Assembly (NCBI GenBank): GCA_905178155.1
Contig: CAJINV010000006.1
Location: forward strand, 2,768,658 to 2,832,657
Reading direction: 5' to 3'
Source: Amoebophrya sp. A120
Lineage: Eukaryota > Protista > Dinoflagellata
Length of the DNA: 64,000 bases
Below are positions 66 to 63,400 of the stretch, in pieces (the stretch's first letter is position 1; every line of letters begins with the position of its first letter). The notes beneath the pieces are model-generated. The model had not been told where the DNA came from. It saw only the letters and a program-made list of their open reading frames with translations, and ran no database searches. Made by a program: the position numbers and the translations under genes.

Positions 66-3000
66 CTGCTGCTGCCTCCCGGGGGAACTCCACGACCCGG
101 AGCACGAGAATTATTTGAAAAGATCCGCCTATCGAATGCAAATATGTTTGGGTCTGAAAGGATGCAGGGCTTGTCATGCTTATCTGGCATGACTGAAAAG
201 TTTGTGATGCGTGTCCGAGAAGAGATCCTTGTGTTTGTCACGCAAAAACGCAGTTCGTCATGCGGAAAACGCAACACTAAGCCGCGCAAATATTTCTCAT
301 GCTTGGCTGCGCATTGCAGAGAATTCACTACTCACAGCTCGGCATTACAAGTTTCCAGAGCCAGACATATTTGCATGTGATACCGCCGCCGCCATGGCAA
401 AGAATTCGCAGGTCTACATCAACATCGTTCCCGGGAATTTTATGTCGTCAGAAATCCTGAACGCGTGCAGCCACCTGCTCGGCTGTTTAGTCATCCCGCT
501 TTTGTACACGCGGTTGTTTTATGCCTTGCAAATATGTCCTCTGGGTGTGAAAGATTGGGCGAGGTTGTCATGCAAATCGTGCATGACCCGCGATCTCTGT
601 GATGCATGCTCTAGCATCACAGCTTTTGCGAAGGCTTCCTCATGCCTGTCCTGCATGAGAGAAGTGCCCACCACCTCTCCGGCGGGTGGCAACATTCTGA
701 GTGCCTTTTGCTGTTCATGCAACACAGATTTTTGCATAGTCGTGAGTTAGCATCGCAAATCCCATTCTTCCCAGACCCAGAACGATATTTGCATTTGATA
801 AGTTTTCGATCATCAGAGAGTTCGAGAATTTCATGGAAAACAAGATGCCCAGCAGCGTCTTATCCTGTGCAAAAGTATCGTACTCGTACAACTGCAAGTT
901 TAGCATCACAAATCTTGTTTCCGGAAGGAAAATCTGCATTACAAATTTTATTTCTCATGCTGAGGAAATTTGTAATGCATTTATACGAGCACGATACTTT
1001 TACAATGCATATGTCTTTCAGAACTACAATGGCGCGGCCCACAACAATTTTCCTCCTCCACCCCCTTGGCAACAAGATTACTACAACGACTTTCTTGATC
1101 CCGCGTCCCCCGCCGCACAATCTGCCCACAATTTCTCCCTCATGCAGAACCTGGGAACCTTCGCGCTGGGGACGTTTCTTTTCACGGCTTTTATAATGTT
1201 TTTGAACAGTTGCGTTTACCACGCGTTGTTCTACGTGGTGCGAAGCAACCAAGCCATGCAGGTGCTGGACCACAGCGGAATTTATTGCCTAATCGCCGGG
1301 ACTATCAGATGCAAATATGGCTGGGTCTGGAAAGTTGTGATGCTAATATCCGAAAGATACGCAAACGGTATTGCGGAGTCGCGCATGACAAGTTTCTGTG
1401 TACTAGCTACGTCTAGCGTTAAGCGCATGACAAATTGCATTTTTACATAGCAAACAAGTGGCGTTGTAGCGCAACAAGCATGACAGACTTTTTTGCATTG
1501 CCGGCCGAGCATGACAGGCTTGCATTCTTCCAGACCCAGACAAATTTGCAATCCATAGGGACCTATTTTCCGATCATCGTCATTGGCTGCGACAACACGT
1601 ATAATGCAGTTGTGCCGGGGATGTGGTATACTAGTAGGTACTTCGACAGCAGTAGCAGCAGCAGTGCGACCAACGGAAATAATAACAGCTTCACCGGAAC
1701 CAATTCCACACCTTCCCCAACAGCACAGTACGGTCCACTGGTTCTCCTTTTGGTGTACTTGATTCTCACCTTCCTCGGTTTGACCATCTCGATTCAGTGC
1801 CACGCGAAAAAGTGGTACCCGAATTTTGTCGTAGTGATGTACGTCGTCATGGGGTTTCTCGGCGCACCGTACATGCTAACGACGTGCTTTGTCGGGCCGG
1901 CGGAGGAATGTGGGTGGAACAACAATCCGGCGCAAATGTACAACGGGAACTTGTCGAGTTTCAACCTCGTCCCCAGTGACGAAAACGTGAAATCTATGCT
2001 GTGTAAAAACGTCCCCACACCAGAGTCGAGATGGAGATTTTGCAACACAAACCTAGAGCTTTTGGGGGTCACGCATCACAAGTTGCAGTCCGTAGCGTAG
2101 TGCAGGTTCGCAAGGCCAGCTGCATCAAAAATCCATCTGCTCATCCCGGTCACAGCATTACAAATGCCGAAACACGATTGGAAATGCCTTTCATGGGGAA
2201 GCGCATTACAAGTGTTCCTGTCATTGCAAATCTGCATGACAACTCCGGGGTGGGTACGTTTTTACACAGGATAAAATCCCACTACTGGTGGGCGAAGGCG
2301 TTAATCGCGCTCGGCGGGGCGTTCTACCTGTTTATCAAAAGGAAAAATCCCCCCTCCCCATATCAAAAGGAAGTTTCTGCTGCTGGATTTGCGTAGACAA
2401 ATCAGGTTTGTATTGTAGAGAGGCATTGCGGGCAGATCTCCAGGCTAGATAGGGGCTTATGTGTCTAGTTGCTCAGCATGGCAAACGGCTCCCCTTTAGG
2501 CCCAGCAGCATGACAAATCGCCTCCATAATGGGGCGAAAGCTCCTGCCCTCGTCTTCTTGCAAGATGCATATGATTTGTGACCTCAAATCAGCAATACAA
2601 GTTTTCGGAGTCATACCTTTTCGATATGGGGAGGGGGGATTTTTCCTTTCAATACTGTTTGGCGTGTATTTTTTCCTGCAGCGGCAGTACCCCTTCTACC
2701 ACGTGATCTGGCACCTGTTCGTCTATGGCTTGTTCAGCTGTTACAATCTCAAGCGTTACAATAGAATATGGAAATCTGTGATGCAAGAAGTGCATGAGCT
2801 AACATACTGTCACAGAATTGCGCATGACAGGTTCTGGAGTCCTAAGCTGCAGTAGAATCTGCCGAAATTTCTATTGCAGAAAGTGGAACGCTCTGCGAGT
2901 CTGTCATGCTCATCACGCAAGACAAATCCCAGACTCTATTGTAACGTTTTAGATTCTAACGTTTGAGCAGGTCATATCGTCATCTTCGCGTTTTTGGCGC

Positions 3001-3131
3001 ACTACGGCGCCATTGAGGCGGTGGTGGAAGCGAGCATTGAGAAACAGAAAGCGCGCAGGTGGATACAGATTGTCCTGGCCGCGGGAAGGAAGGACTGGCA
3101 CGATGGCGCGGTGATCGCCGGGGGTGATTGA
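1..3131 (+). CDS. Hemolysin III / PAQR family membrane protein (5' end outside window), 8 introners
   Basis: Spliced translation contains EILNACSHLLG, SCVYHAL, VLDHSGIYCLIAGTYFP, MYVVMGFLG, GGAFYLFGVYFF and YHVIWHLFV, the HlyIII/PAQR signature motifs. TGA at 3129-3131. Confidence 0.9.
130..382. mobile_element. Introner family A (TIR TATCAAATGCAAAAATGTCTGGGTCTGGAA)
   Basis: Direct repeats CCGCC/CCGCC. Confidence 0.9.
520..800. mobile_element. Introner family A
   Basis: DR TGTTT/AGTTT. Confidence 0.88.
861..1011. mobile_element. Introner family B (TIR TATCCTGTGCAAAAGTATCGTACTCGTA)
   Basis: DR CGTCT/TGTCT. Confidence 0.9.
1303..1557. mobile_element. Introner family A
   Basis: DR GGGAC, restores IAGTYFP. 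Confidence 0.92.
1995..2273. mobile_element. Introner family C (TIR TATCCTGTGTAAAAACGTCCCCAC)
   Basis: DR AAATC. Confidence 0.9.
2333..2654. mobile_element. Introner family D (TIR TATCAAAAGGAAAAATCCCCCCTCCCCATATC)
   Basis: DR CTGTT. Confidence 0.92.
2724..2976. mobile_element. Introner family F (TIR TATGGCTTGYTCAG...TTACAAT)
   Basis: DR TCGTC. Confidence 0.9.
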
Positions 3132-4572
3132 GGACAGATCTAGAAGCTATACCGGCCTAAAACTCGTTGTTTTTCTACTTGGACTCATATCAGGACTACA
3201 CCGGGATAGTACTGTAGTTGGTGAAGAAGAAGATGATGAAAACCGAGCAGGAAGAACAGAGTTTATTTGGAGAAAAAGCTGCACGACCCTGCCAAAAAGC
3301 TGGAAATAAACAGCAAAATATCAAAGAAACGAAATGGGGGCTTGCAGCAGTCCTCGTGCTGTCATTGCAACGATGAAATGGGTCCGTGCGTTAGGTCCTT
3401 TTCATCACTCTCTGAATGAAACCTCGCGCTGCGGATTTTCCATAGGTCTGGTTCAAGTTTATCATCAAACACACAGAACTACTAGTTCTAGAGCGTAGCA
3501 GATTCAAATGTTACCTACACATAGCCCTTAAGTATCTGATCTCACGCCTTTTGCGGAGGTCGTACCACGACGCAGCGAGTAAAAAAGATGACCCGAAGAT
3601 CGGAATAAATATGTGTAATAGCGCTAGTTAGTTAGTGTTAAGCCAACATCCTACCTGTAGTTCCTAGCCAACAGTGATGCAGAGAGCTCGGCGCAAGAAG
3701 ATAAAAAAAAATCGCTGGGGAAAAAAGACCGTGAGACTTGCACCTTCACTGCCAGTCTCAACAGGCCATAGACATATATCTTCAGTTGGGTACATCATCA
3801 TCATCAAGCAGCACCCGCATCTACTCTGTCGCTCACCCCGCACTGTAGTTGTCCTGTAGTAGTTTCATCTCTTTTGACCCCGCTAAGTGTAATGGCGCAT
3901 AGCGGTTTTTTCATTTTCTGATTGACCGTCATCCTCACTTTTAGACTTACGTCGACAGTTTTTCCACAGGCGTGCCTTAATATCGTTTTTCTGCACGTGA
4001 CGCACAAAGAAGATATCAAGCTGCAGCATATAATTACTCCACGCATTTTGTTTCCTGAAACCCCGCACTGCGATGTCTGACTCTGGTTGGACGAGTTGGA
4101 TGGTGTTCTGCAGGACAGCACATGGGCCGCCGCACGGTTTCACAGCGAATCGGAAGCGAGAGTTGTCGGAAGGGAGCACGAAGTTGTTTGAAAAGCGGAT
4201 TACAGCACCACCACTTCGCCCCAGAAGATTGATCCCGAGGTGTAGAAGACTCCTCGTAATGATGTTGCCTCGAGTCACTCGAAGTGCTTTTTGGGCGTTA
4301 TTTTTGTTAAAGCATTTTTTAAAGATTAAAACAAAAAACTGTACTGAAATTTTGATTTGTACGTGTATGATTCACTTACTACTCGCTTGAGAAGAACAAG
4401 AAATACTGCGCTGTGCAGGATTAGGAGCAGGAACGCATATAATTTTTTGGCAGCAGGAACAAAGAAGACTACAAAACTACAAATTTACTTTTTACGAAAA
4501 CGAAGTTACTGCACAGGAGGCTATTAATTAACATCCAGAACCACGACGTCGGTCATTACATTAAAGCCTTGG

Positions 4573-4587
4573 CTTCGATAATAATAA
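4573..4587 (+). mobile_element. 15-bp 3' remnant of a (TAA)n-tailed non-LTR retroelement
   Basis: CTTCGATAATAATAA between 16-bp direct repeats TACATTAAAGCCTTGG (4557-4572, 4588-4603). Matches the 3' end of 29032-29940. Confidence 0.75.
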
Positions 4588-7477
4588 TACATTAAAGCCT
4601 TGGATGACTGTGATGGTGATATTCGAGCTAGACTCGAACTGTTGTGCTCAGGTAGAAGAGGAAGATTGTGACTGTGCTGGTCGCGCCGGGGAGAAGCAAT
4701 TGGATTGATGGTCTTACGGCTTTTGAAGGGGAGAGATACATAGATTAAACTTTTTGAACAGGACGAAGGGATGGATTTTTTAGAAGCTACTGCGGGAGGA
4801 GGTGGACAGCTCTTTGCACTCTACTTCAGGACAACAGCTCCACACTGTTGGGTTTGATGAACAAAATGGTAGGAACAGGTGCAGAGAAAAAGTGAAAGGT
4901 CGTGGAAAACAACAAAAGACAAATTACATAAAAGGCAAAATATGCAAGGAAATTGGTTTCCAGCAGTCGGGAGTTCCTCCTCACTGTCTTGTTCTTCGGG
5001 CTGTTCAATCCAATTGAGTACTTACCTCTGTTGAGCACGCGACGTGAGTAGACCTACTTTGCTGCAGAGTTACCTGCAAACCTGACCACGAAAGAGAGAG
5101 AGAGAAAAGGGTGCCGCAGCAGTGGAGTGCAGTGTTTCGTGCATTGGTATCAGAGAGAGGAGTTGAAGTTTTTCAAACGAGCACGTCTTTCAAATATAAG
5201 TAACTTGACTGCTTGCTGTTCGGCTCTGCATGGAGAGCCGAGGAGCGGTGCCGGGCGTCTTGCAGGGGGTGGGGCCGGGCGTCTTTGGTTGTGTCGTGTG
5301 CCCTTTTTTCGCGCTGCGCCGCGCCGGCTGCCTGGTCCATACGGTGTCAAGGGCAGGAGCGCCGCGCCAGCGGGCGCGCGAAGTACGCGCGAGGCCGGCG
5401 GAGTGTCAAAGGCGACTCTTCGACGCGGATACCTTGGCAGAAACAGGCGCCCCCTGCTAAGCGCGCCATCGAAAAGCAACGCAGGCGCCGGCCCGGAAGC
5501 CTCGCCCTCTCGCCGCAGCAGCGGCGCCCAGCCCCGGCGCCCGCGCTTGCTTGCGCGGCGCTTTTTCACGTGCCCCCGCTGCCCCCGCGCACGCATGGCC
5601 CGCTGCCCGCCCCGCCAGCGGGGCGGCCCAGCGGCAGGCCGCGGGCCCTCTGCGACTGACAGACTCTGGTGCTACTAACCCGGGCGCGCCGGGCGCTGCC
5701 ATGCGTGGCGTGCTTGGCGGCAGTTGTTAGGGTCCCGGCCGGCGCGCCGTATTGCGAGCGCGTTCGAGTTGTGTGAACCAATACGCAGTGCGCGCGCCGG
5801 GGCGAGTGAGGAAGGCCGCACAGAGCAGGGCGCCATGTTCGAGGCAGCCCTTACGTGTTATTCTCGAGGCCCTCGTAGAGCCGACGACGCTCGGAAGGAA
5901 GTACGCCGAAGAGGGGCAGGAAAGTAACAGGAGACAAGACCAGCGGAAAAACCACCGAAAAAGGGGACAGTCTCGCACCTTCCGCGTCGAGACTATGTCA
6001 AAGTGGGTTCGTTATTTATCTATGGCTTTACAGCTATTGCGATGCTCAACTATACACTGGGCTTGAGTGTGGAAGTCGCGTCTTGTTTTTTCTTCTGCAC
6101 CGGTTTCTGGATCTGATAATGAGAGCGACGGAGAGTGCTGGTTCAGGAGCAGAGAGAAGACTTTCTTGTACTTGGGCAGAAAGTATTTAAGTAGTTTGTG
6201 TGACGTTCACGTTCTGAGTGCACATCCGCGACGGGTGAGAAATGTGATGTACTGAGTGTGTATGTGGTACTCTGACGAGAAGAGCTGTGGGCGGCATATA
6301 TCTTATAATGCTTCAGAATCAACTTAAGTAGCTGCGAAGGGGCAGGCATGTTGCTTCTCCTTACGCGTGTTTCGCGGTTGACGTTGTGGCGTTTGTTGCA
6401 CAGCATGGGGCGAGCTGCCGCAATGTGGAGCGGGCCAGGGGGGGCGCGGGGTGAGTAACGCGCGACGCCCCCGGGTCATCGATCAGACTGTCGCGCGACT
6501 GCCGAGCATGGGGCCGCGCGGAAACTGGCCGAGCCGCCCCGACAAGAAAACGAATTGGGAACCGCCCCTACAGCAATAACGGAGGACGCAGCGCGCGCGT
6601 TGGCGGCCGCAGGCACTTGGCTCGGTATTTAAGAACGCTTGGCCTAGGTTGCCCCTCCGAAGCGCGCCACGGGCGCCGCACTACCGGCGCCGCGCGCGCG
6701 CCGTTCTTCCACCGGCCCGGCCGGCGCTGCTTTACCTTTGCCGGCCTTCGGGCTTGTCCGGCCGGAACGGGCCGCGCCGTGTTTTGGCTAGTGGCGCCGC
6801 GATTCGTTGACGGCCCCTCCATCTGTCCGGCCGGGACCCATCCCCGCCGGGAAAAGAATCAGGCGGAGGCGGAGGCGGGCGCCTGCGCCGCTCCGGCTCA
6901 GTCTTTGCAACTCATTTCCGCGCGAGTGGAGGGGGGTGGCGCCCCAGTTTCGCTTCGCTGCTGCCAATGTACCTATGCAAGTAAGGGGCCGGGAGTGTAT
7001 GGCACCGACCCAAGCAAAGGCAGTAGAGCTAGAGCACGTAGCAACCGCAGCACAGCTCATGCATGTTGCGGCAATGGCCGCGCCGGAACGTGTTCACTTT
7101 CTTCAGGTTCAGGCAACGGGGCGTGCAAACACGGTCCAGAGGAGGAACAACACAACAGGCAAAAACGAGAGGAGCCACTTCTGATGTCCGGAAAGAGCGC
7201 CCCGTCATTCTTGAGCGCCGTCTTCATCTTTGCCGTGAGTGGGCAGCGAGTGTTGGTGTGGAATTTGCCAAGAGGCAGGAACGCAGCATTATCAAATCTT
7301 GTTGAACGCAAAGCAGTGCATTTCTATTTGCGCATCAGCAGAACAAACCAGAGCTGTTGCCGGCGCGATTTCGCTCTTGTTATCGTTTAGTAATCCGAAA
7401 TACGCTATTGAGATCAAGCCATGCCCTCCTGTTTCTCTCCCTCGACGCGAAACAAAGGGAAACCGAACTGCGACACC

Positions 7478-10400
7478 ATGGCCGCCGGGCTCGACTCCAG
7501 CAAGTACAAAATGACCGTTCCTTCTTTCCTCTCCGACAACGTTCCGCCCATGGGGATTTACGAAACCCTCTACGCCTTCAAGGATTCGTTCGGCGCGTTC
7601 ATGGGCACGTATGACAGTGCGCACGTCCCCCTCGTTCTCATTTCTCATGCAAAATACTAAATCCACGCTTTGCTTCTTGGCACAGGTTTGCATGACAAGT
7701 TCTGGTAGTCCAAAAAGCACTACAGTCCAGTGCAAGTTTGTCATGCAAAACCGGCATTCTTGCTGAAGCTGATGCTTGTACTATTGCCTTTCATGCTATA
7801 CAAATGAGCGGAAGCAGGGGGAGCTGTGCACTGTTATAGCACGGAGGGAACCCACCCCTGGTCCCAGGGCTTTCCGCTGACGACCAAACTGACGGTATCC
7901 TGAGTAAAAACGATCCCACACGACCAGAGTCAAGTTGGGAAACCTGCAAGAAAAATACACAAGCTTTGGCTGTTTCGCATGACAAGTTTGGGCTCGCAAT
8001 GTAAGAATCGCGCTCAGCTAGTGCAGAAGCGTCACAAATCCAGCGCATTATGCTGATTCGAGCATCACAAATTCCAGAACACGACTAGAGAGTGCTTCTC
8101 GTCGGGCTCCGCATGATAAACAGTTGGAGCATGCCGACTTGCATGACAGCTAGGGGGTGGTGACGTTTTTACACAGGATGCATGGGCGACCCGGCTGACC
8201 CGGCGGACGGCCCGGAGTTGCCGTCCTCGGTGGAATATCCATTGCAAATGTATCGATTCTACTCGTAGTTACCTTGCAGAGTTTTACTTATGCCGAAAAT
8301 GATAAAACTGCTTTAGCATCTGAAAAGTCTGCATAACAAACTCCACTATCCTTTTTGAGGATGAACAAAGAAGTTGTAAAATGCAACTTCTACCACCTGT
8401 ATCTCTCTCGAACGAGTGTAGAAGTTGTGGTTGTGCGAAGACACGACTTGTTTTGCAATGCATATGAAAGTGACTTTCGAAGACCGGTTTTACCCGAAGG
8501 CCTGGGGCCACCCAGCGCTGCGGAAAACGATTGCGGACTACTACAACAAGTATTACGTGAACGACCCAAAGTGCAACGAGGGGTTGTCGGATGAGGAGAG
8601 GAAATTGAAGGAAACGTACTTGATATGGAACGAAGAAACTGTGTAGTATCGGGTGTCTTCGGGTGACAGCATGACAAATTTGTTCTGCATGACAAAGAAA
8701 TGCTGTCATGCACAGATAGTACGTGAAAACAAAACACCTTATAAAATAGGACGTCATGGCTGGCTAGCATGACAACTGTAACACTGTTGCATGTTTTGCA
8801 TGACAGACTTACACTTACCCAGTTTTTTTCTTCCATACCTGAACAAGACGCCGATTGATGAGGAGAACATCATGATTTTCGCCGGCGGCAGATATCGAAA
8901 GGAAAAATCCCCCCTCCCCATATCAAAACGGAATTTCTGATGCTGGATTTGTGTACACAAATCAGGTTTGTATTGCAGAGAGGCACTCCGGCCAAATCCC
9001 CAGGCTAGGTAGGGCCGTATGGGTCTAGTTGTTCAGCATGGCAAGTGGGTCACTTTTAGGGCCAACAGCATGGCAAATCGCTTCCCTAGTGGGGCGGAAG
9101 CTTCTGCCCTTGTCTTCTTGCAATACAAATGCGATTTGCGACCTCAAAGCAGCAACGCAAATTTTCAGAAACATACCTTTTCGATATGGGGAGGGGGGAT
9201 TTTTGCTTTTGATAGCAGACCGGGCATCTACACAGTGCTGGCTTTTTTGAAGAAGGATGTGGAAGTCAGGATCAGCAACATGGAGTGGCCCGCGTATCTG
9301 GATATTATGGAGGTATTTATAAGTAGCTTTGATGATGACTTTGTTTGCTTTGCTTGATTAGATGCGTTGTTGACGCATGTTTTTTATGATTTGCAAAACA
9401 GACACAGAGCATGAGAAACTGCACCACAATTGAAATCTCACATGCCACACACCGGTGATCTACTACATCGAAACATCAGGCCACGAACACTTCCTGGACC
9501 GTCGTCCCGTGCAACCTGGAAAACGAATTCCGCCCGACAAACGACCAGTACTACGAAATTAGGAAGACTTTGAACTACAAGAAAAAAATCTTCCCCATCA
9601 TCTCCAACCCCGGAAACCCCACCGGGCACGTCCGCTGCGGTGATGAGTTGATATGCACTACAATTTTTTTTTTTTCCTCGCACGTACAAAATGCATTGCT
9701 ATACAACTTGTCATGCTGATAACGATTGAAGGGGAGTTTTGTCATGCAGAAAAAGCATTTGCTTTTGGTACTTTGGTCGTGCACGGGAAATTGAAACTTT
9801 CTGTGGATAGTTGAAGCATTTGGTCCACACGTTGGCAGAGAAGAACGGCGAGGGTCTTTTGCTAGTATGCATGGCAAATATCATTTCTGCGTCTGGGAGC
9901 TCTAGAAACTTGCGTTGCTGATATTCGCATCGCAGAGCGTCTTAACAAATTTCATGGCATCACAAAAAAAAATCGCCAGTCGTGTTTTACGCATCACATA
10001 TCCTTCCTGTGCTTCAGGTCTCGCAACACAAATCCAGAGGAAATACCAGAGATACAACATATTTGCCCTGCATAACTGGACGAAGCGTACGAAATGTACC
10101 ACAACCCCGCGTATCAAATGCAACTATGCCTGGGTCTGGAAATTTGTGATGCAAAAATGTGCATGATGAAAACACTTCCTTATGCAGAACAGCATGACAA
10201 GTTTGCAGAGCACTTACTCATACGAACTCCGCATGAGAAACTGCGTTTTTGTATGACATGAGAGGCTGCCACTTTTGTTGGTCGTGCAATACAGAACTCA
10301 CAGGAATGCAGCACCAGCATTACAAGTTCCATCTTTCCAGATCCAGACATATTTGCAATGCATACCGCGGTCTCCGGCTTGGCCTACGCCGAGGATTTGG

Positions 10401-19714: not shown

Positions 19715-20238
19715 GGTCGTCGCTTTGTGATTGTGTTGTGTTGATTGATAGCTTGTGGCGCACCAGCAAGAAAAATGAACCGCGTTTGATGCCGGCGATC
19801 AAGAAGAGACAAGTAGTTGGATTAAACGAAGAAGAACGGCGATGAAATAAGCGGCATAGGTCGTCGTGCAAAATAAACGAATAACAAGCCAAGCTGTGTT
19901 TCGCAACAGTTTCTTCCTTCTTCTTGAACAAAAAGTGGCAACAAGAACGAGGACTTCCAGCAGCTGGGGAGAGTAGTAAACACTTCCTACCAACATCAAC
20001 ACACGACCATGAAGACGACCATGGACATCAAACTGTCTAGACAAAAATCCAGCGACAACATTAAATTTTGTTTTCACAAAGAAACTTCACCGCATGTGGG
20101 CACTTGCAGAGGATGAGGAGTCCTGCGCGGAAGAAGACTTCCGTCCGAAGACGAGGGGTAATGAATAGTCGCCCAGATGAGCGGAGTTCTTGTTTTCATC
20201 ACACTCCACTGCGTAGTTCGTCGCGCTTCGATGAGTAC

Positions 20239-20321
20239 TCACGCAACACAGATTTTTGCATCATTCAGATTTAGCATGACAAGTTCTAATCTTCCAGACC
20301 CAGACATTTTTACATTTGATA
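20239..20321. mobile_element. Truncated family A introner (right end) in a duplicated segment
   Basis: Right TIR only, followed by TCGGA. Confidence 0.8.
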
Positions 20322-20715: not shown

Positions 20716-20875
20716 GTAGTCCATATAATCGTGCAAGATTGCTTGTAGATGTACAAATTCCATCGTGAAGTACAAATTCCAGTAGTAGAAGTACAAATTC
20801 CATCGTGCAAGATTGCTAGTAGTAGTCCCATATAATCGTGAAGTACAGATTCCATCGTGCAAGATTGCTTGTAGG
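20716..20875. repeat. Scrambled short direct repeats
   Basis: Repeated units GAAGTACAAATTCCA, ATCGTGCAAGATTGCT and GTAGTCCATATAATCGTG. Confidence 0.7.
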
Positions 20876-48577: not shown

Positions 48578-49230
48578 GCTGGAACTTCTAGTAGTACTTC
48601 CACTGGTCGTAATAAAGTATCCGTTTGGAGAAACGTATAATGAAACTCAGTTTCTGTCACTGGCGATCTCGCGGCACATGTTGCGACGTGATGTTGATGA
48701 CTATGACAATTTCATCTAAAAGCCTAGTGCTGCGGGACCATGTGCTGTGTGTGTGTGTGATAGCTGCAAATTATCGATGAAAATGAAGGAAAGAAGTAAA
48801 AGGCAACCACCTGGACTTTCTTTTACTGCTGTGTTCCACCGAATGAAGCATTATCCACGATGCCAGTGTAGTCGATCTTGTCTCCACCAGCACTGCTGTT
48901 CGAAAGCTGGGCAGTTGCTTTCATTCTGCTTTTCGCTTGTTGCCCGATTTTCACCCGCAGCGACGCATCTCATGAAAACGAAGACCATGAGAAGTATTTT
49001 TAAAAGAAGGAATCTACTCTAATTCTATCTGTACCGCTTGAGAAGTGGTTCGCGTTTTCTGTCAAGGATCGAAATTCTTCAACATCATGACTTCCCCCAC
49101 AGAGCTGTCCTTTAGCAATATTACTTCTTTTTGAAGAGCAGACTACTCAAAGGAATAAATCTTCACCGGAGCTGTTGTACAACACAGATTTCTACTCGAA
49201 GCAAAAAGAAGCTTCGCCAGGCAAGAAATC

Positions 49231-52045: not shown

Positions 52046-52600
52046 ATAGAATACATGTACGCGAGCGACAAAGATTGAAACTAGATTTGGAAAAAGTATA
52101 CATAACTGGACAAGCGACATCAAATTGGTAATCTACTCCTCTGCAAGTGAGAGCTGTTTCGCGAGTAGGACCGTTTACCGTACCAACTCTGAGATGGTGC
52201 TGTTGTGTTCGAATTTAGTTAACAAAATGCGATCAACATGTGAAGAACGAAGAGGAAGGTGTTTTTGAAGCACACTGGAGGGTGTGGTGAATTATGTTCT
52301 GCCGAGCGATATTTTTTTTTCCCGAGAAGTCTCGGACTTTCTCTTTCATTCATGAATTGTACCCGAAGATGAACCTGCTTCCAGTGCCTACTCGACAGAT
52401 GAATCTGTTCTACCTATCAAAAGGATTTATACTGGGAGCCGATATGCCTTCCGGGTTGTAACTTGTTTGTCTAGCGGCTATAGTGTCATAAAGTCAAGAG
52501 TGTAGATACTAGAGCTTTCGCTTTATTACGACCATCAGACTTTACTCGTATCTCTTTTTCGTCTATCTTCTCCCCAATAAGTTGTGAAGTAGTTTCCACT

Positions 52601-53801
52601 ATGGAGCCCCCAATTAGTACAACAACAGCTCCAACATCCTCTGATACCGCTATTTTTTCCTCCACAGCCTCTTACCTTTTTTCCAGTAACCCCTCTGCCC
52701 TGCACATCGGGCTCTCAGTCTTCGTGGCTACCTTGGTCCTCTGGATCCTAGTCTCATTCAATATGGGAAACTCCAGTGTTGCCGACTTGATAAAAAAGGA
52801 CGGTGGAAGTCCGAGTAAACAGGAACCCCAGCCTGAGCAAAGTGGCGAACAGGAAAGGCCACCGAAAAAGCAGTTTCCAGTGCCGGAAGAGGGGTCCAGG
52901 GATCCGAATTACGAATGGACCTTTCAGACGTTAAGGGACTACGACGGGGACAAGAACCGCATGTACATAGGGGTCTGCGGACTGGTGTTTGACGTACAAG
53001 AGAGCGACAACTTTAGGCCGGATTTTGGTACTCAATCTACATATCCCGTCAGTAGTGCTGCCAGTTTGGGGTAATTTTGCATGAAGTTTATATGTTGTCA
53101 TTCCTGTTTTACTCGTAGGCCCACACTTCACTCCACGACATAATCCTGAGTTGGGAATCGATCGAGATCACCTCAATGTAGCTTGAAATCAATTCTGTCA
53201 AGAACACGATTTCCAAAAATCAGGTTACGGCAAGCTTTGGGGCGGAAGGGACGCGACGTACTCACTGGCAATGTTGAGTTTAAAACCGGACGACGCGGCA
53301 AAACTGGACTGGAATATCCCACAGAAAAAAGCAGGCAGGGCAGATTTGTATGTAATGCAAAAATAAATATGCAGAAAAATCTGTCATGGGCAACGCCATA
53401 GCATGCTGTTTAGGACATGCAAGACAGATTGTTTTGTGTATTTATTTTTGCATTACAAATAATCATGTCTGACCTGCCTAGTGCTTTTTTCTGTGTGATA
53501 TGGAAGCTAGAGGACTTACCCGATGGGAACAAGGAGAGTATGGCTTTTTCTTCTCTTCGTATTTAGTACTAGTATACTTACACCTGCTGTATAAAAATGA
53601 ACTCTTGATGCACATGCAAGTAGAACACTCTTAGCTTGAAAACGAAAAAACCAAACTTCCTCAGGTTTAAAGTCGTGGCTGGATCACTTCAAGAAGAAGT
53701 ACACAATAGTCGGGAAGCTCGCAGAATACGACGGCTGGGACTTTTCACCCCTGGATGCCTTCGCAAAAGCACCGGCGGAAGATGCTGCTGCGGCTTCGTG
53801 A
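52601..53801 (+). CDS. Cytochrome b5-like heme/steroid-binding (MAPR) membrane protein, 2 GT-AG introns + 1 introner
   Basis: N-terminal TM segment, LRDYDG, MYIGVCGLVFDV, GYGKLWGGRDATYSLA, SLKSWLDHFKKKYTIVGKL. TGA 53799-53801. Confidence 0.9.
53028..53223 (+). other. Canonical GT-AG intron
   Basis: Restores DFGYGKLW. Confidence 0.9.
53315..53500. mobile_element. Introner family J (TIR TATCMCACAGAAAAAAGCA)
   Basis: DR TGGAA. Confidence 0.9.
53538..53664 (+). other. Canonical GT-AG intron
   Basis: Restores KESLKSW. Confidence 0.9.
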
Positions 53802-54473
53802 AAGGACGAGGATTTTTTTGCGACGATGCTCGTCGGAAAGGACAACAACAGCAACAACTCCACTCGCTTTATTGCAAAACGACAATCGCGCTATTGAAAA
53901 ACTGGATTATGATCCACATAGTCGCTAGACCACACTGTTGCAGCGTCATGGTGTCAAACATGTAAAGAAATTTTTCAAAAGCCCAAAAACACTTCACGCA
54001 TGATTCTCTTTCTAACTATGTGGAATCGACGCGACCGGGACGGCGTTCGAAGAGTGTTCTCAGGCGGAAAGCTACATCACGAGTGTCAAGAACAACCGGA
54101 CATCAATTATGGCTCCGCTGCAGAAGGGCAGTGATTTATTGTCAAGAGTGCTGAAGAGAATCTACCTTGTGCCGTTTCCTACTAGTGGCGAAGCGGAGCT
54201 TCCCTTTGTCGTGCTTGCGTTGAGAGGTTGTACAGCCATTCATTGTGAATGTGAAGGCACAGATCAAGTCATTGTACTACTCCGTCTCCTGATGAAGATC
54301 AGCTCTTCGACAACGAGAATTAGTGTTTCATTTTAAGCGGGAGAAAAAGTCCTATATGCGCCAAGCTGAACAGAACTGCATATCCAACAACTTTTGAGAG
54401 AAGCAATCAAGTTGTTCATAAAAAATGGATCTAGCTACACGACACCATCGCTGCCGACGGATAATATCATCTC

Positions 54474-57400
54474 ATGCGGCAATATCTGCCGCAGCGCTCG
54501 CTGCTTGGATTTGACAGCAAGGCTGCTTCGCCAACTAGCACGTCTACCGGTGGTCCGCAAGCGAAACCGCAGAACCGCATCTCTTCCTCAAGTGTAGTTC
54601 ATCTCACCACAAGTCAGACTAGCCGACATATGGAACGAAAAAACTGTGTTAGTGCAGGTGTCTTGGGGTGACAGCATGACAAATTTGTGCTGCATGACAA
54701 AGAAATCCTGTCATGCACATACTAGTACGGGAAAACATCTATGAAATAGGACTTCATGGCTGGCTAGCATGACAAGTGGAACTGTGTTGCATGCTTTGCA
54801 TGACAGACTTACACCTACACAGTTTTTCTCTTGCATACGACAGAGCTCCGCTTCCATCCCTGTAGAGCTGCTACGGGACGGGATTTTATTGTCAAAAACT
54901 TTCCGGAGCTGGGCACGCTTGCGGTTGCTGAGTAGACACCACGAACAGGAGAAGCACGACGATCTTTCTGGACTACTAGGACTGTTGTCTTCAGAAGAAG
55001 ACGAAGTTCAACATCCGGTAGAAGGAAAAAATCTCGACGAGGCATCAAATAGAGCGATGGCCGCAGCTGCCAACGGAATTATAGGCGGCACAGTTGGCGT
55101 CCCCGCAGTAGATGATGTCTCACCGGTGAGTGAGATTCTGGAGGAGAGCATGGAACAAGGAACAGAAGGCCATGTCGTCTTTCCGCCGAGGGAACAAGAA
55201 GAACATTTTACCGGAGATGTTGAACTAGGACCTGTTGTTGAGGCCACAACTACGAAGAGGACCTCCCAAGAGAACAACAAGACCTCACTAACATCAGAGG
55301 AACCAACGCAACAAGAATCTTCTTGGATCCAGGCCAAGCCCAGTTTCAGCAGTACGAGAGGGATTGTCCCGCAGTTGTTATCTGGCCAGGTGGCAGGACG
55401 AGCTCAGCAAGCGCAGGGGGCGAGTAAAAATGGATTGCAGCATGATGGGGGAACTTCTCAGCTTCGTGGTGGTGCAGACTCGTCGTCTCCCGGGGACACC
55501 ATCTCTTCTTCCGCGACGCCCACGCAAACCGTGAACATTCTGCCAGATCATGGGGGTAACGACGGGACACAACTACCATCTGCAGTAGTAGGAACTGGAA
55601 CAGCTACACAAAGTATCCTTCCACCTAGTGGCACAAACACAGCTGGGCAAGCAGCAACAGTCGCTGAAAACCCAGAGGACCCTTTGAAAAATGTTTCAGA
55701 AGAAGCCAAAGCAGGAGGATCTGTCTTGACCACAAGTCTCGACGCTGCTGCCCAGGTAGAAGTATCATCAGCAACTACACAGCAGGTTGCATCTGGAGGT
55801 GACTTCTACAACTTCCCTGGTGGCCGCGCTACTACTTCCACCCCAGAGCAGGCCGCAGGAGCAGGTGGAACTAGCACCGCTCCGCGCGGCGTCCTGATAC
55901 TCAATGCGGACCGGACGCCCAGTACTGCGGAGAATTTCCAGAGCAACGACGAGAACGTAGAGGGTGAACCTGTCAGGAACAGAAGAAGATCCAGCAGTGG
56001 CAGCAGGGTGGTGCATTTCAAAAACAGCCCGACGGTAATGCCGGATGTTTCGCGTGGAGGGGACCATCAAGCGGTTGGCAGCAGCGTAAACACTGGTGCA
56101 CAGCAAAGCGAAGTGAAGCAGTCGTCTGCTAGTACTTCTAGTAGTGGTGCGCCGGGCAGCACATCGAACCTCCGGCGGGAAATCGAGCAAAACGCGTATG
56201 CGCTGTTGAACAAACCGAATGGGACAAGGTCGAGCATCTCAATGACGAGCGCTGGTGCACCAGGAGGAAGTTATCAAATGCAAAAATGTCTGGGTCTGGA
56301 AGGATTCCAATTTGTGATGCGAATTCTACATCATGAGAAATTCTGTCATGCATGGCCAGCAAAAGGCCCCGTTTCTTGTTACCGGAAGAGGGGATTTGTC
56401 ACGCGCATTAGGCATTGGGAGGCCTGCTCGAAATCTGTGATGCTAGGGCTTGCATGCCAGACAATCCGGGTCAGGCAAACCTGCATGACAAATCTCGAAG
56501 TCTTCCAGACCCAGACATTTTTGCATTTGATAGAAGTAATTCTATCACCAAGCCCAAACGGAAATTCCAGGTGGAGAAGCCAACGAATAGTACAAGTGAA
56601 GAACGACAGGCCGAGATGAACACTGCAAGCGCCGGCTACGGATGTGTCAGGAGCGAAGTGGCAAAGTCGAAAAATTTGTGATGCATAAAATTTAGGGCAC
56701 TGGAGGCCTGTATTGGGGAGCAGGCAAATGAGACCTCCGATTGTAAGCCTGTTTAGGGGTATGCAATGTGCTGCCAGAGTAGCATGACAGGAGCAGTCTT
56801 CTTTGCCCAAACAGCATGACAGACTGGATTTGAGTGCTCTCGAAATTTGTCATGCGTCACTTACAAACTGAGGCTGCAACTGGTATCGATTTTATGCAAC
56901 GCAAATTTTTCTTTTTTGTCAATTTCGATTCTGACACTTCCATACCGGCTCGACTTCCAGCGCCCCTTCCACCGCCAACGCCAGCAGGAGCAGCAGTTTG
57001 GGCGGGGTTGGTGTTAGTAGAACAAAAACTGCGGGTGGTCGTAGTGGTCCAGAAGGCGAAGCTATGGGGCGAAATAATTTGCAGGTACCATCATCTTCAA
57101 GCGCGGCTTCTTCCACGCAGAAAGCGCGACCCCCTCCATCGTCGCGATCAGAAGCTGCGCAGGCTACCTTTGATTCCAGGGTGACAGAAAATTATTACGA
57201 CAAGTTTCAAGGAGAAGAAGCAGTAGAATCACAGCCACTGCACACTTTTCTCTCGGATGAATTGCGAGGTAATAACGTCGGGAGCAAATTTTCCTCGTCT
57301 CAACAGCAGCAACTTTTGCAGCACCAAGCCGCACCAGGACCGGACCTCCCGACGACCTTCATCGGGCCCAACATGCTTCCGTTGAGAATCGTCGGCGGGG

Positions 57401-60400
57401 TCAGCCCGAAGCTACAAATGTCCACGACCAGGAGAAGCAGCAGCAGTGCCTCCAATTCGCCATCCAAAGTCCTCGTTTCCCAGCACTCGCACATCTCCGC
57501 CTTCCATTTACAAAAGGAAAGCGCCATACTTTCGATCGAAAATAACTTGATGCCCAGGCGGAGTACTAGAGGGGGTAGTTTCAATACTTCCGGAGATCAA
57601 CGTGGGTACTACATGGACGATGCCAGCTACCGTGCCGATTCCTCCCCGTCTTCCAAGTTGCAACTTCCGGCGAAACGCATGTCCATCCACGAAGAGCTGC
57701 AATCCGTGGCCTCTTCCCATCCGAACTCCCCGACCCGGCGCCGCGCAGTTTCGCAGAGCAGCGGCGGTGGGCGGAGTGGGACCCAGTCCGCGAGCCAAAG
57801 TCCGAAACGCGAGCCGAATTTTATCAAGAAAGCGACCGAGGCGTGGCGGCACAGACTGCTAGCGGCCGAAGCCGAAGAACCGAAATACTACCACGAGGAC
57901 CTAAAATTGAAAACGCGGAACATGTCTTTTGACAACAACAGTATGATCCGTCCCTCGCTGTTGCGCGAACCGGAGCGGCGGAGTTCCGCGATGGCAGATA
58001 TCCGAGCCAGGGTGAATATGACAGTGCACAACCCCCCCTCGTTCTTATTTCTCATGCAAAATACCAAATCCACGGTTTCCCTCCTGTCACTATTATGCAT
58101 GACAAGTTCTGGCAGCCCAAATAGCACTACACTCCAGTGCAAGACTGTCATGCAAAAGCGGGACTTCTGCTGCTGCATGTATTGCCGTTCATGCTATACA
58201 AATGAGGGGGAGGGGGAGTTGTGCACTGCCATAGTGAAAAGGAAGAAATTACACGACGAGGCACTGATCGCGCAGATGGGCGGGCGAGGGTCGTTCATGC
58301 CATTGTTTCCCGGCGACAACTATGCGAATGACAGGAGCAGTAGTCCTATGCTGTGCAAAAGTATCGTACTCGTACTAATTGCAGTCGCGCATTACAAATC
58401 TGATTTCCAAGGTCAATCAGCATGACAAATTTCATTTTTCATGCTGAGGAAATTTGTCATGCGGTTTCTACTAGTACGATATTTTTGCAATGCATAAGTC
58501 CTCCACCTGGCGCGGGAGTAGACGACCTGGCCGCCCGAGGAGGTGGGACTGGTATAACGTCCACTCGAGGAGCCGCGTCTACTTCTTCGAGAAGCCCCAC
58601 GACGACCGGAGTCGGTGTGCAACCTCTATCCGCGGATAACCGAGTTGGTTTGAACTCCAGCACGAATGTCTTGCTCCCATCAGAAAGCGACGCAACCATC
58701 GCGGAACAGATGCGGCAATACCAGCAAGTTTTGGAGAATAACAAACTGAATTTACAACTGCAGAGTCAGCAGCAGCAGGTCGCCGGCGTGGTGCAACGGG
58801 GGCAGCAGCAGCAGGTACTATTGCAGCAGCAGCCGCCAGTCATATTTCCGAACAGCGCGCGCTCAACATATTCCTCTTCCGGAATCTACTCTAGCCGGAC
58901 ACCGGCAGGAACTACAGGTGGCGGAACCAGAGGCGTTTCGGTGGGAGCAGTACCAGCAGCGCGCAGTTTGAATACTTCCAGCGTCGTTGATTCGTCTTTA
59001 TTGCAAGCGAGTTACGACCATGCCTCGAAATACTATACCCCAACCGCGGCGTCATCAGCCAGGGCGAGAAGTGGGGGACGGGTTGGCTCTAATGCGACGG
59101 GGATGCGGAATAGCGGGGCACGAGCGAGTAGCAATATGGAACAGGTAATGTGTAATAGCGACATTGTTTTAAATTCTGCTCCGTTTAGATAGTTCAGCAA
59201 AACTTGCGTCTGTACAGGTTGCACGCAGAAAAGAGGAAAGTGCGAGCACTGTGTCAGGAGCACGCAAAACAGCATTTCGCCGTTTGGGCTTCCGAAGTAG
59301 ATAGAGCTGCAACATGTACACGAGGAAAGATATTAGATCGCTGTGGCATAAGAAGACACTTCTATGGTTGGCCTGCATGACAAATGTACTTGCTCTATGT
59401 ATTTTCTGCATTACAGATTTCATACTTTCAAATTTTTCTTTTCCCATAGGTCCTCCTGCAAGCCTTGGACCAAGACCCTGCCGTCGCTGCATCCTTCCTC
59501 CGCGAAGCGCAGGGGAATTCTTCCTCGACCACCCCCCTCGACCAGAAGAAGCTGAACCTGATCCAAGCCCAGATGGCGAAGAACCAGGGCACGCAGAAGT
59601 TCAGACAGGCGCTATCATATGTAAAAACGTACCTACCCCATAGTCAAGATGGGGAATCGGCTAGACAAATCCACAAGCTTTGGCTGTTTCGCATGACAAA
59701 TTTGGACGCGTAGTGTAGTGCTGTTTGAGCTAGTTCAGCAGCATTACAGATCTAGTCTCTCATGCTGATTGGAGCATGACAAATTTCAAAACACCATTAG
59801 AAAATGCTTCTCATGGGGCTCCGTATGAGAAACATTTTAAGCATGCAGATTTGCATGACAGCTATGCTGTGGGGACGTTTTTACACAGGATAAGCGCTGC
59901 AAGGCATTTTGAGAAACCGGTTTCAACTCGTGGTGCGGCGGTTTTACCAGTTCTCTTCCCGCTTCGCGAACGCGAATTGGACGCAATTGCAAACGTTCAT
60001 CAACCAACAAAATGAGGAGTTGACCGTGACGAAATCTCTGAGGAATAACTATCAAAAGGAAAATTCCCTCTCCCCATATCAAAAGGAAGTTTCTGATGCT
60101 GGATTTGTGTACACAAATCAGGTCTGTCTTGCAGTAGAGGACTGCAAGCCCATGCCAAGCCTAAGTAGAAGGGTTTTGACGTAGGCGCGTAGCATGGCAA
60201 ATGTGTACTCTGTAGGCCCCATAGCATCACAAGCCGCCTGCATAATGCGGCGGAGTCGCTGGATTGGCCTTCTTGCAATACAAAGACGATGCGCGTCCAC
60301 AAATCAGCATGTTGACAAATCTTCAGAAGCATCCCTTTTTGGTACAAGGAGGGGGGATTTTTCCTCACGATAATAATGACTTGATTCTGTTCGACCAGTC

Positions 60401-63400
60401 GAAATCGCAGCTTCTCCGTATGACCTGCTCAAACGCTACAAGCATGACAGACTCGCACAGCGTTCCACTTTCTGCAATACAAAGCTCGCCAGATTTTTCC
60501 ATTGCGGATCTTCCGAAGAACTCCAGAACTTGTCATGCGCAATCCTGTGGGAGTAGGGTAGATCATGCTGCTCTTCTTGCATCACAGATTTCCGTATTCT
60601 ATGGTGACCGATTTGAGATTTTTGTAACAGTTGAGCAGGTTATACTCAGGCAGATCTTCCTCCTCACTTTTATCAAAAACATCATGCAGTACGCCCGACG
60701 AAACAGCTTTGCCTACGCGTTTCTGGAAAGGCTAAAGTGGAACAATTTTCTGCTGAAAAAAACCTCCAAACTACAAACGGAAAACTTGAAATTGCAACAC
60801 AAACTGAAGAAGGAGCGAATATCAAATGCAAAAATGCCTGGGTCTGGAAGAGCCAAACTTGCGATGCTGCATTTGGATGCTAAAAAAGCCTGTATTGCAT
60901 GACCAGCAAGAGGATTCAAATTTGGCTACGCGGAGAGGGCATTTGTCATGCTGGATGCGCGGAGATAAGTGCTCAAAAAATTTGTGATGCTATGGCATAC
61001 ATCACAGACATCATGGATCATGGAAAATGTGCATGACAAAGTTGTGCTCTTCCAGACCCAGATATTTTTGCATTTGATAGCGAACGACTGTGGACAACTA
61101 CCTCTCCCAAGTGGATCAGATTGATTCGAAAATCAACAGCTACTTAGCGCAGGACGAAATGCGCTCGACCTTTGCGCACAAATTCGTGTTTCTGCTCGAC
61201 AAAGTGCTCATGCGGAACAAAAACGCGATGGTCTCCTTCGCGTTTGAAAGGCTTTCGTTGAACAACAATTTTTTCCCGGAAGCGACGAAAGCGATGCGGA
61301 GTAGGACGGCCATGTTGAATTCGAATAACACCGCCAGGGGCGCCGGTATCAAAAGGAAAAATTCCCCCTCCCCATATCAAAACGAAGTTTCTGATGCAGG
61401 ATTTGCGTACACAAATCAGATCTGTCTTGCTGGACAGAAATGCAGGCCCATACTAAGCCTAAGTAGAGAGGTTTTGGCCTGGGCGACTAGCATGAGGAAC
61501 GTCCGTGCTGTAGGCCCATCAGCATCACAAACCGCCTGCACAATGCTGCGGAGCTTGTGGAGTTGCCTTCTTGCAAGACAGACGTGATTTGTGGTCTCAA
61601 ATCAGCAACGCAAATGTTCGGAAACATACCTCTTCGATATGGGGAGGGGGGATTTTTCCTCATAATAGCCGGGGCAGCTTCTTCTTTCATGACCGCAACT
61701 ACTTCCGGCGCAGGTGCTGGCGGTGCCGTTCCTTCTAGAGCCACAAGTCCTCCTCCCAATATTTTCGAGAGGACAGGATCAACATCTCCTCCATCGCGAT
61801 ACTCCTCCTCCGCCAAACAAATTACTACAAACCACCAACAGCAGTTCCAATCCAAATACCAGCAATTGGAAATCCAAGCGGCGAATCTGATGAAGATCCG
61901 GTTGAAATACTGCGTGTATTGCAATGAAAAATTCCCCCAACGACCCAGAACCTGGAAGCATCTGTATTGCAAACCTTTCCAAATGAAACACTCGCCGTCT
62001 TGCGTATCTTAGCATCACAAATTTTCCATGCTTAAATAATAGCTCCAATTTGTGTTGCAAAGGAGCCCAACAGTAGCCGGGTCTGTTATGCAAAAGATGC
62101 CTTGCGCACCTAGATTCTGCATCAGAAAGGCTCGTAGTCCTGTCATGCCAGACAAAAATCTTTCATTTGGAAACTCTGCATGAGAAACTTTTGTAAATTG
62201 CGGGGTGGGGGCATTTTTCATTCTGATAGCGTGCGGAGTGATTTCCAGGTGTTCGGGAAGGACTTTCAAACCACAGTGGCGGAGGTGACGGCCGCGGGAG
62301 GGGGTACAATTACCATCGGAACTACTGAAACAAATAAAGACCACAGCAATCAGAGCGGCAGTGCTGCCACGTCGAGGGGTAAAACAAATAGCAGCAGCGC
62401 AGGAGGAGGTGCTTTGACCTGGAACATGCGGCTGACAATCGGGTGTTTGGAAATGCTCATGTACGTGTTGACAACGCTGTTGAAGTCAAAACTACGGTTC
62501 GGCGTGAACCAGCTTTTGAAAAACGCGGTCAGTGGTGGGATAGGAGCGCCGGGGAGCACTATGATGATGATGTCTAATACAACAAGCCGAAGGGAGGTCA
62601 TGAACCACGCGGGCCAACAGCAATATGGCGATGAATTCGAAATGCTAGAAGAGGAGTTGCTAGAAGATGTGACCAGCGCCGCTGAAATGAAAAACAAAAA
62701 CCACCACAGAAAAAATCTCTCCCCCACGACCTCCCCCCCTGGCCGGAGTAGGAGCCCAGCTATAAAAATGCGAGCGCAGGGCAATAGTGGAATTGCCTCT
62801 ACTCAGTTGGGCACCCTTACTCCGGGGAAAAAAGAGCTCCAGCCCCCGCCAGGCTTGCAGATTGAGAAACTCGCACTGCACGTTGGGGCGTCGAAGACGA
62901 ACGAAGAGATTGAAATGTCGGAGAACCTTATCGCAAGGAAAAACTGTTTCACTGTAAACTTGTAATGCAGAAAATGCATCTTAGAAGTGTTTGTCTTGCT
63001 ACACATGCAAGACAATGGGTTTTAGCCGTGTTTTCCCTTAGGAACCTTGCATGGCAAATCTTTTCTGTCATACGGAACAAACTTGTGATGCAAAACTTGC
63101 AAAATCCTTACAGGGAAACACTTTTTTCGTGTGATAAGCCTGAATTTAGTGCGGAATTCCATGAACTTTCGGAACTCTTTCGACGGAGTGCATGTCCCAC
63201 CAGCGGAGGTATTAAATTCAACAAGCAATCCCAACTTCTTCCCTGCAGCACAACAAGACACTTCACTTCCCTTTTTTGAAGACCTCCGCTCTCCACCAGT
63301 CCAACACCGCGAAATGAACAAAACTGCAGCCACGATTACAGCCGTCACCAGCCCGCCGGGACAAACACAAACAAATTCCTACCGGCGGCAGTATGAGCAG

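Follow-up and report, generated by a model that had tools for sequence, protein, structure and literature searches.

Introners of Amoebophrya sp. A120 are consistent with a single fixed cut within their 5-bp target duplication

Where is an intron cut when the same five bases stand at both of its ends? This question is raised by a 64,000-bp stretch of the Amoebophrya sp. A120 genome (contig CAJINV010000006.1 of assembly GCA_905178155.1, positions 2,768,658 to 2,832,657, forward strand; hereafter the window), the annotated genes of which, all on the + strand, are interrupted by introners with inverted ends. About 30,000 such introns, accounting for 17% of the assembly, have been described in A120 without a splicing signature. 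They are ~240 nt long, form hairpins, and possess inverted repeats with TAT, seven variable bases and A's, as well as direct repeats of 3-5 nt. Their non-canonical borders are supported by RNA, no dinucleotide signature was found, the splice sites were regarded as variable relative to the hairpin, the legend of Fig. 3 gives the border as unknown, and that of Fig. S23 has the repeats at a distance of 1-5 nt from these sites (Farhat et al., 2021; excerpts of PMC7789003). In the window, the imperfect repeats agree on one cut, after the fourth base of the repeat.

The window contains 79 introners that resemble miniature inverted-repeat transposable elements (MITEs), located at 125..63693 on the + strand. 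They run from TAT to ATA (TAT start in 77 of 79), are 132-1231 bp long with a median of 261, and are each flanked by 5-bp direct repeats, which are perfect at 54 and imperfect at 25 of the 79 sites, with 37 substitutions in total. Removal of the element together with one copy of the repeat yields long open reading frames (ORFs) that span up to 14 elements, while retention leads to a stop or a frameshift in 75 of 79 cases. Three of the proteins encoded in the window are recorded under the source name Amoebophrya sp. A120. These elements are the published A120 introners: they carry terminal inverted repeats (TIRs) with TAT, seven variable bases and at least three A's, have border repeats of 5 bp, within the 3-5 nt described, occur in repeated hairpin-forming families, and are removed from transcripts at non-GT-AG borders, as is seen in the joints of contigs X1-X4 discussed below. 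The hairpins are strong (median z of -6.1 for 77 elements) and closed by TAT/ATA, with terminal pairs at probabilities of 0.73-0.83. An Rfam search of the window gave no match.

The sample was enlarged by 149 loci (375 kb) of a second assembly, obtained in a pattern scan and fetched by exact match to the family ends. When benchmarked on the window, the repeat-blind detector made 66 exact calls out of 69 and found 66 of the 79 elements; five of the 13 that it missed were mismatched. Because of this and the exact fetching, the second-assembly sample leans toward young elements. It comprised 339 detected elements, among which 252 had perfect repeats and at most two were at shifted offsets. We set aside 21 elements with at most 2/5 matching bases (seven of these passed the frame filter and were re-added as a check). 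The other 318 were framed, and 199 were kept at a margin of at least 4, at which the frame caller was correct in 68 of 69 cross-validations. The pooled set thus consisted of 278 elements, 79 from the window and 199 from the second assembly. Positions +12 to +14 are A at frequencies of 0.91-0.95 in this set. Across both assemblies, 366 elements had a neighbour over 80% of their length; relative to the gene, the nearest relative lay in the same direction in 199 cases and in the opposite one in 167.

A sequence-only reading of this stretch had proposed that mismatches between the repeat copies allow the cut to be mapped, and they do. Given that k is the number of left-copy repeat bases kept in the message, 16 mismatched sites were informative: five through RNA contigs, ten through annotated proteins (P0001, P0002 and P0124, which are gene-model products) and one through a stop codon (Table 1). 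At all of them the base kept was the left one at positions 1-4 and the right one at position 5. These sites meet only at k = 4, and the intron is therefore N-TAT...ATA-NNNN, with the first base and the last four free; left bases 1-4 and right base 5 remain in the message. If each site had its own cut, the chance that one cut would fit all 16 is 0.00125. In the X1 contigs, the gap lengths of 197 nt spanning four elements and of 1029 nt spanning six elements and a GT-AG intron both correspond to removal of the element plus five bases in each case. Between 58500 and 64000, nine joints were found in X1-X4, one per intron and with no alternative form, and every element and one GT-AG intron were skipped; the depth inside the elements was zero in the RNA-type runs. 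We consider the fixed cut well supported. The sequence-only reading had favored either a junction that floats, so that both copies contribute to mRNA, or an intronic copy constrained for recognition. The former finds no support as the main mode, given that all 16 sites fit a single cut and that one joint per site was seen at four RNA sites. The latter fails in its strong form: the intronic bases lack a consensus, and P0001 at 30478 and P0124 at 17861 are joined in frame even though both of the bases flanking the cut differ.

At this cut, position +1 and positions -4 to -1 of the 278 pooled elements take every letter. The donors are GT in 82, AT in 77, CT in 68 and TT in 51, and all 16 acceptor pairs occur. 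GT-AG is found in 6 of the 278, so the introners do not have the GT/GC...AG termini of U2-type introns, and no target preference was seen in the sequences compared. The free terminal bases account for the absence of a dinucleotide signature in the earlier work. The signature instead lies one base inside: T at +2, A at +3 and A at -7, with N-TAT in 97% of introners and A at -7 in 277 of 278. The least variable end bases are +2 T and -7 A. Whereas +2 never varies among the 278, its mirror position -5 varies in six; +4 varies in seven (mostly to C) and its mirror -7 in one (Fisher P 0.005). The nine canonical introns of the window begin with GTAT (six), GTAC (two) or GTAA (one), i.e., with GTA in all nine, and N-TAT is in register with these GTAY donors, so that introners and canonical introns share a donor consensus beyond +1. 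A drift of +1 toward G among the introners was not significant (7 vs. 4, P 0.55). The 3' ends of most canonical introns are rich in A, not in pyrimidines (e.g., 10960-10971 and 33987-33998).

The elements are thus already known, and what is new is the fixed position of the cut within the duplication. In contrast to the published account (excerpts of PMC7789003), we find one cut, a repeat that is a 5-bp target duplication as judged from empty sites, and the signature of +2 T, +3 A and -7 A. The published variability of the splice position relative to the hairpin is not seen here, where one position fits 16 of 16 sites; this reads as a correction to the description of the A120 introners, not as a sign that the elements are something else. 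Later mapping of the border was not found in the literature searched, which covered few subscription papers, and the excerpts of PMC12130899, PMC11282704 and PMC11453091 add no cut position. With a fixed N-TAT...ATA-N4 rule, the apparent diversity of splice borders becomes one code. This closes a gap in the published description and is a likely explanation for the removal of tens of thousands of introns in which the usual end signals are missing. The rule also corrects intron borders in the annotation, singles out bases +2, +3 and -7, and turns spliceosome action without a G at +1 and without AG into a question that lariats can answer.

That the repeat is a true target duplication follows from locus L032, which is orthologous to 59945-62330. 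L032 lacks four of the window elements and carries three of its own that are fully in view, and all seven empty sites hold a single 5-mer, as expected for MITEs. The orthologous locus has an omega of 0.155 over 296 codons and of 0.064 in its conserved part. It also polarizes three mismatches, all synonymous: the change fell in the exonic base at 60050 and in the intronic base at the two others, 60419 and the L032 element near 792. At 520, too, the change must lie in the intronic copy, which there gives a stop. Of eight insertion sites in view, seven are occupied in just one of two relatives whose exons are ~93% identical, which suggests very fast intron turnover. The one shared element (60820-61079) differs at 9 of 260 bases while the synonymous divergence (dS) is 0.30, which may reflect conversion, an introgression tract or constraint. 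Its flanks are of low divergence as well (5/180 vs. 31/375, P 0.016, post hoc), and its similarity is therefore no evidence of constraint.

The reading that we favor, at a probability of about 0.75, is that non-coding MITE-like introners are excised from the RNA along with the equivalent of one copy of the 5-bp target site duplication (TSD) by a fixed cut after base 4, likely through a relaxed U2-type spliceosome. Such a spliceosome would likely read TAT near the start and measure the end from ATA or the base of the hairpin. N-TAT may serve as the donor, given its register with the canonical GTAY donors of this genome; the A at -7, at a fixed distance of 7 bases from the 3' cut, is a candidate for the branch point; and the terminal hairpin may bring the intron ends together. 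A U2-type spliceosome without U1 would then read U+2/A+3 and cut at a fixed distance. The background to this scheme includes the roles of U6 and U5 and short, fixed branch-to-acceptor distances. The inverted repeat provides TAT and ATA whichever way the element lies, and 1 + 4 equals the 5-bp duplication; any such element inserted into an exon would therefore be removed scarlessly. More speculatively, the U1-less spliceosome of A120 might ignore both terminal dinucleotides, read U+2/A+3, branch at the A seven bases from the end and cut by distance. The rule would then amount to TIR plus 5-bp duplication, insertions in either orientation would be born as perfect introns, which would explain the genome-wide invasion, and minor paired sliding would leave the synonymous excess described next; we advance this extension tentatively.

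The sequence-only reading had started from a different observation, that substitutions between the repeat copies are mostly synonymous. Its five examples (8624, 10494, 45859, 60419 and 60050) are all present and synonymous in the host frame, mismatches do occur at all five positions (pooled 21, 17, 14, 19 and 12; chi-square P 0.52), and its count of 15 synonymous substitutions out of 22 at 19 junctions was reproduced exactly after dropping the sites at 7896, 28500, 30150, 30478, 35715 and 36089. These six sites had been left out as badly decayed. They are, however, real introns and belong in the count because they are spliced in frame in the annotated proteins P0001 and P0002. With their 4/15, the window total becomes 19/37 (51%). 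Under a null with one neutral intronic and one exonic base per repeat position, about 40% would be synonymous, as had been supposed; we computed 0.38-0.41 for omega of 0.2-0.05, with a mutation spectrum drawn from 218 element bodies (under which neutral changes in these contexts are synonymous in 27% of cases). The window alone does not depart significantly from this null (P 0.065-0.13), while a simulation with a wider mix of omega gave P 0.009 for 19/37. Mechanical inflation by the exclusion of the six worst sites was considered and rejected, given that it shifted the simulated share just from 0.342 to 0.347; the exclusion had its effect because five of the six sites sit in one gene. Outside P0001 the window gives 16/22 (P 0.0035 against 0.42, a post hoc split), and P0001 itself 3/15.

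In the second assembly, 25 of 46 substitutions in the 199 framed elements were synonymous (P 0.02-0.05), or 31 of 70 when low-match sites were included. The pooled share was 44/83 (P 0.004-0.02), and 50/107 with the seven low-match elements (P 0.09, bootstrap interval 0.37-0.57), a value that would be biased downward if some of these are false pairs. A model-free ratio of 4-fold to 0-fold sites was 2.37 (1.39-4.05), an interval that includes the null of ~1.7-1.9, and ordered and disordered protein contexts were not separated (27/46 vs. 17/37, P 0.28). The synonymous excess (47-53%) is thus modest and unsettled, and is a smaller result beside the cut rule; the word "synonymous" is absent from the main text of PMC7789003. 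A frozen intronic copy, or two coding copies, predicts a share of 0.66-0.89, which is rejected for omega up to 0.2 (P at most 0.011) and not at 0.3. The intronic copy has a fitted rate of 0.2-0.4 times the synonymous rate (intervals 0.03-0.91, omega 0.2-0.05), which leaves room for a weak form of the constraint proposed earlier. Either the intronic copy probably evolves at a lower rate than synonymous sites do, or sampling noise accounts for part of the excess. GC/AT polarity (18 vs. 21) and codon commonness gave no indication of which copy had changed, and comparison of repeat mismatch with nearest-neighbour divergence was too coarse for dating elements. At positions 1-2 of the pooled repeats, the left codon was the commoner one in 19 of 25 synonymous cases.

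Several points weigh against the favored interpretation. X1-X4 are contigs of one sample whose RNA status is guessed, and because contigs drop rare variants, minor sliding may be hidden in them. For the five RNA-type sites alone, agreement on a single cut would arise by chance in 39% of cases, and the weight of the conclusion therefore falls on the gene models. These were built from transcript alignments (excerpts of PMC7789003), and the annotated proteins may rest on the same RNA as the contigs. The cut evidence covers 16 of the 25 imperfect sites, and for the second-assembly elements the cut after base 4 was assumed. It should be noted that the spliceosomal step is deduced from sequence, and that the A at -7, so regular in introners, is found in 7 of 9 canonical introns, a weak hint given their A-rich ends. 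Finally, no explanation for the synonymous excess was found here, and the synonymous share is 25/38 at positions 1-2 vs. 19/45 at positions 3-5 (P 0.047, post hoc).

The same fixed cut could be made by a non-spliceosomal endonuclease and ligase that measure from the base of the hairpin, as was proposed for the nonconventional introns of euglenids. Those introns are likewise MITE-like, with end-joining hairpins, borders that can slide because of direct repeats and free-base spacers of fixed length beyond a short paired motif (excerpts of PMC12501133 and PMC3935182), and their borders were also mapped from non-slidable cases (Milanowski et al., 2014; Nomura et al., 2025; excerpts of PMC3935182 and PMC12501133). 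Terminal dinucleotides without preference, the strong hairpin closing at TAT/ATA, the similarity of the free spacers to the Euglena code of 3 and 5-6 (excerpts of PMC12501133) and the failure to detect U1 in A120 (excerpts of PMC7789003) are all in keeping with such an enzyme. The codes themselves differ: the euglenid pattern is N3-CDG...CHG-N5-6 with a purine starting the next exon, whereas here it is N1-TAT...ATA-N4 followed by any base, and the excerpts claim no register with GT donors for the euglenid introns, for which they suggest a non-spliceosomal machine (excerpts of PMC12501133). That the cut sets TAT in register with the canonical GTAY donors, that the two arms are conserved asymmetrically, which is unexpected from pairing alone, and that nearly all spliceosomal proteins are reported present in A120 (excerpts of PMC7789003) make this alternative somewhat unlikely.

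For the favored spliceosomal cut there are partial parallels. The introns of Fritillaria borealis are also transposon-derived, with TIRs and TSDs, and are removed by a U2-type spliceosome of changed specificity; they still prefer certain terminal dinucleotides (AG-AC, AG-AT, penultimate A), in contrast to the free +1 and -4 to -1 found here (excerpts of PMC11282704 and bioRxiv 10.1101/2025.08.15.670264). In Micromonas and Aureococcus, a MITE and one TSD copy are removed without a scar, as here, but at canonical or near-canonical sites, of which the element brings one and the TSD provides the co-opted AG (excerpts of PMC11282704). Such co-option is not apparent in our set, in which AG is found at -2/-1 in 24 of 278. 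PMC12621601, of which excerpts were available, served as a further comparator.

What survives of the floating junction is an unlikely form in which the main cut falls after base 4, both cuts sometimes shift together, and selection purges amino-acid changes from the intronic copy. The pooled share of 44/83 against 0.40, the 16/22 outside P0001 and the synonymous nature of both polarized changes in the intronic copy are what it would predict, and its minor forms would be invisible in contigs. It sits poorly with the single joint in each of the 13 site-run observations at the four mismatched RNA sites, with the would-be stop in the intronic copy at 520, with an excess that sits at positions 1-2, distant from the cut, and with the fading of that excess to 50/107 when low-match sites are added; that both copies are fully visible is rejected for omega of up to 0.2, though not at 0.3.

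Recombination or gene conversion with element-free alleles could also bring mostly synonymous allelic differences into one flank, whichever copy is exonic. Presence/absence differences are common between close relatives (7/8 sites), and a low-divergence tract surrounds the one shared element; however, this comes from a single orthologous locus, and for the mismatched copies at 60419 and those of the L032 element near 792 no adjacent tract was seen, which renders this account less likely still. Short direct repeats that close a hairpin are a known setting of reverse-transcriptase template-switch artefacts, but such an origin of the junctions is very improbable given that retention breaks the frame in 75 of 79 elements while the orthologous gene is under purifying selection, that ORFs cross up to 14 elements, that homology at the RNA joint of site 60419 amounts to one base and that element interiors have no depth in RNA-type runs. 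Equally hard to credit is excision from DNA in the manner of the internal eliminated sequences of ciliates, even though the elements are TA-bounded, hairpin-forming and transposon-derived, because contigs of the DNA-like run X5 pass from exon into element without differences, and contigs that lack elements also lack a GT-AG intron.

Table 1. Features of the window; introns are given as cut after repeat base 4, and k is the number of left-copy repeat bases kept in the message.
Feature	Coordinates	Strand	Repeat copies (left/right)	Observation
Intron, site 520	519..804	+	TGTTT/AGTTT	Position 1; right copy = stop; k at least 1
Intron	860..1015	+	CGTCT/TGTCT	Position 1 synonymous
Intron, site 7896	7895..8184	+	GACGG/CATGG	Position 1 synonymous, position 3 T/M; P0002 = T; k at least 3
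Intron, site 8236	8235..8468	+	TGGAA/TGAAA	Position 3 E/K; P0002 = E, commonest homologue strings E or D; k at least 3
Intron, site 8624	8623..8841	+	CTTGA/CCTGA	Position 2 synonymous
Intron	9865..10078	+	GCTAG/ACTGG	Positions 1 and 4 both synonymous
Intron, site 10494	10493..10629	+	AAATA/GAACA	Positions 1 and 4 both synonymous
Intron, site 17861	17860..18143	+	CGATG/CGACC	Position 4 synonymous, position 5 G/R; P0124 = R; k at most 4
Intron, site 24539	24538..24801	+	GAAGC/GACGC	Position 3 K/T; P0001 = K; k at least 3
Intron, site 28500	28499..28852	+	CTCCG/ATGAG	Three non-synonymous differences; P0001 = PP; k 4 or 5
Intron, site 30150	30149..30426	+	ATTAC/CTTGC	Positions 1 and 4 non-synonymous; P0001 = DY; k 4 or 5
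Intron, site 30478	30477..30801	+	GCGTT/CCGGG	P0001 = AW, hybrid W codon encoded by neither copy alone; k = 4 exactly
Intron, site 35191	35190..35459	+	GTCTG/GTCTC	Position 5 G/R; P0001 = R; k at most 4
Intron, site 35715	35714..36047	+	GGATC/CCACC	Two synonymous and one D/H; P0001 = D; k at least 2
Intron, site 36089	36088..36400	+	ACGAC/CCAAC	Position 1 T/P, position 3 synonymous; P0001 = T; k at least 1
Intron	40103..40373	+	CGGCG/CGGCA	Position 5 synonymous
Intron	40450..40747	+	TTGGA/CTGGA	Position 1 synonymous
Intron	45525..45808	+	CAGTC/CAGGC	Position 4 S/R; DNA sequence only
Intron, site 45859	45858..46114	+	CTGAA/CTCAA	Position 3 synonymous
Intron, site 47151	47150..47394	+	GCTTC/GTTTC	Position 2 synonymous; RNA-contig piece start 47393 = left base; k at least 2
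Intron	50678..50888	+	TCCCC/TTCCC	Position 2 synonymous
Intron, site 59613	59612..59896	+	GGCGC/AGCGC	Position 1; RNA joint keeps left base (joint in 3/4 runs); k at least 1
Intron, site 60050	60049..60376	+	ATAAC/ATAAT	Position 5; RNA joint keeps right base (3/4 runs); k at most 4; L032 empty site = left 5-mer
Intron, site 60419	60418..60648	+	CTCCG/CTCAG	Position 4; RNA joint 60417 to 60649 keeps left base (3/4 runs); k 4-5; right-copy base derived per L032
Intron, site 62929	62928..63140	+	AACCT/AGCCT	Position 2 N/S; RNA joint keeps left base (4/4 runs); k 2-5
Introner	2724-2976	+		Among the 79
Introner	63431-63688	+		Among the 79; seen as RNA-contig joint
Canonical GT-AG intron	59145..59449	+		Removed in same contig as introners; one of the nine compared
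Host gene, class I/II aminotransferase P0002 (PF00155)	7412..12109	+		12 introners
Host gene, protein kinase P0124 (PF00069)	14914..19712	+		9 introners
Host gene P0001, 1232 aa	23455..36450	+		19 introners; no Pfam family at cut-off
Host gene with signal peptide peptidase domain (PF04258)	41942..48576	+		9 introners

Several further features were noticed in and around the gene for P0001. A search of representative sequences gave P0001 itself and two weak matches, and nothing else. The longest introner (28911-30141, 1231 bp) contains an apparent nested insertion with a short repeated flank, and P0001 is still joined in frame. Its right repeat overlaps the left repeat of the element at 30150 (30142-30149), and the exon between the two is 3 bases at the mapped cut, with the frame kept in P0001. 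A 2.6-kb stretch skipped in P0001 (30890-33526) contains a 445-codon open frame without a Pfam match; its right end resembles an element end plus four bases, and its left end lacks TAT. An internal duplication in P0001 (24870-26900) has a unit at ~26820 that lacks the element of 24901 and holds one copy of its 5-mer.

In the second assembly, L050:2829-3108, L025:1975-2302, L003:2123-2341 and L114:76-330 comprise one perfect 8-bp repeat, two repeats of a 5-mer plus three extra bases, and one 4- or 7-bp repeat, with uncertain coding status; under the 1 + 4 ruler, an 8-bp repeat or a 5-mer plus three would add one codon. Raw RNA runs X7 and X8 (same species label) matched, with 3 and 156 reads, only a diverged element family, at 45583-46243 and 59464-60124, and no window exon; they therefore yielded no junctions. 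Right element ends that lack a left end are found at 20235-20321 (truncated, intergenic) and at 1-65 (cut by the window edge). The intergenic stretch 5200-7000 is very GC-rich (up to 80%) and differs in this from the remaining window.

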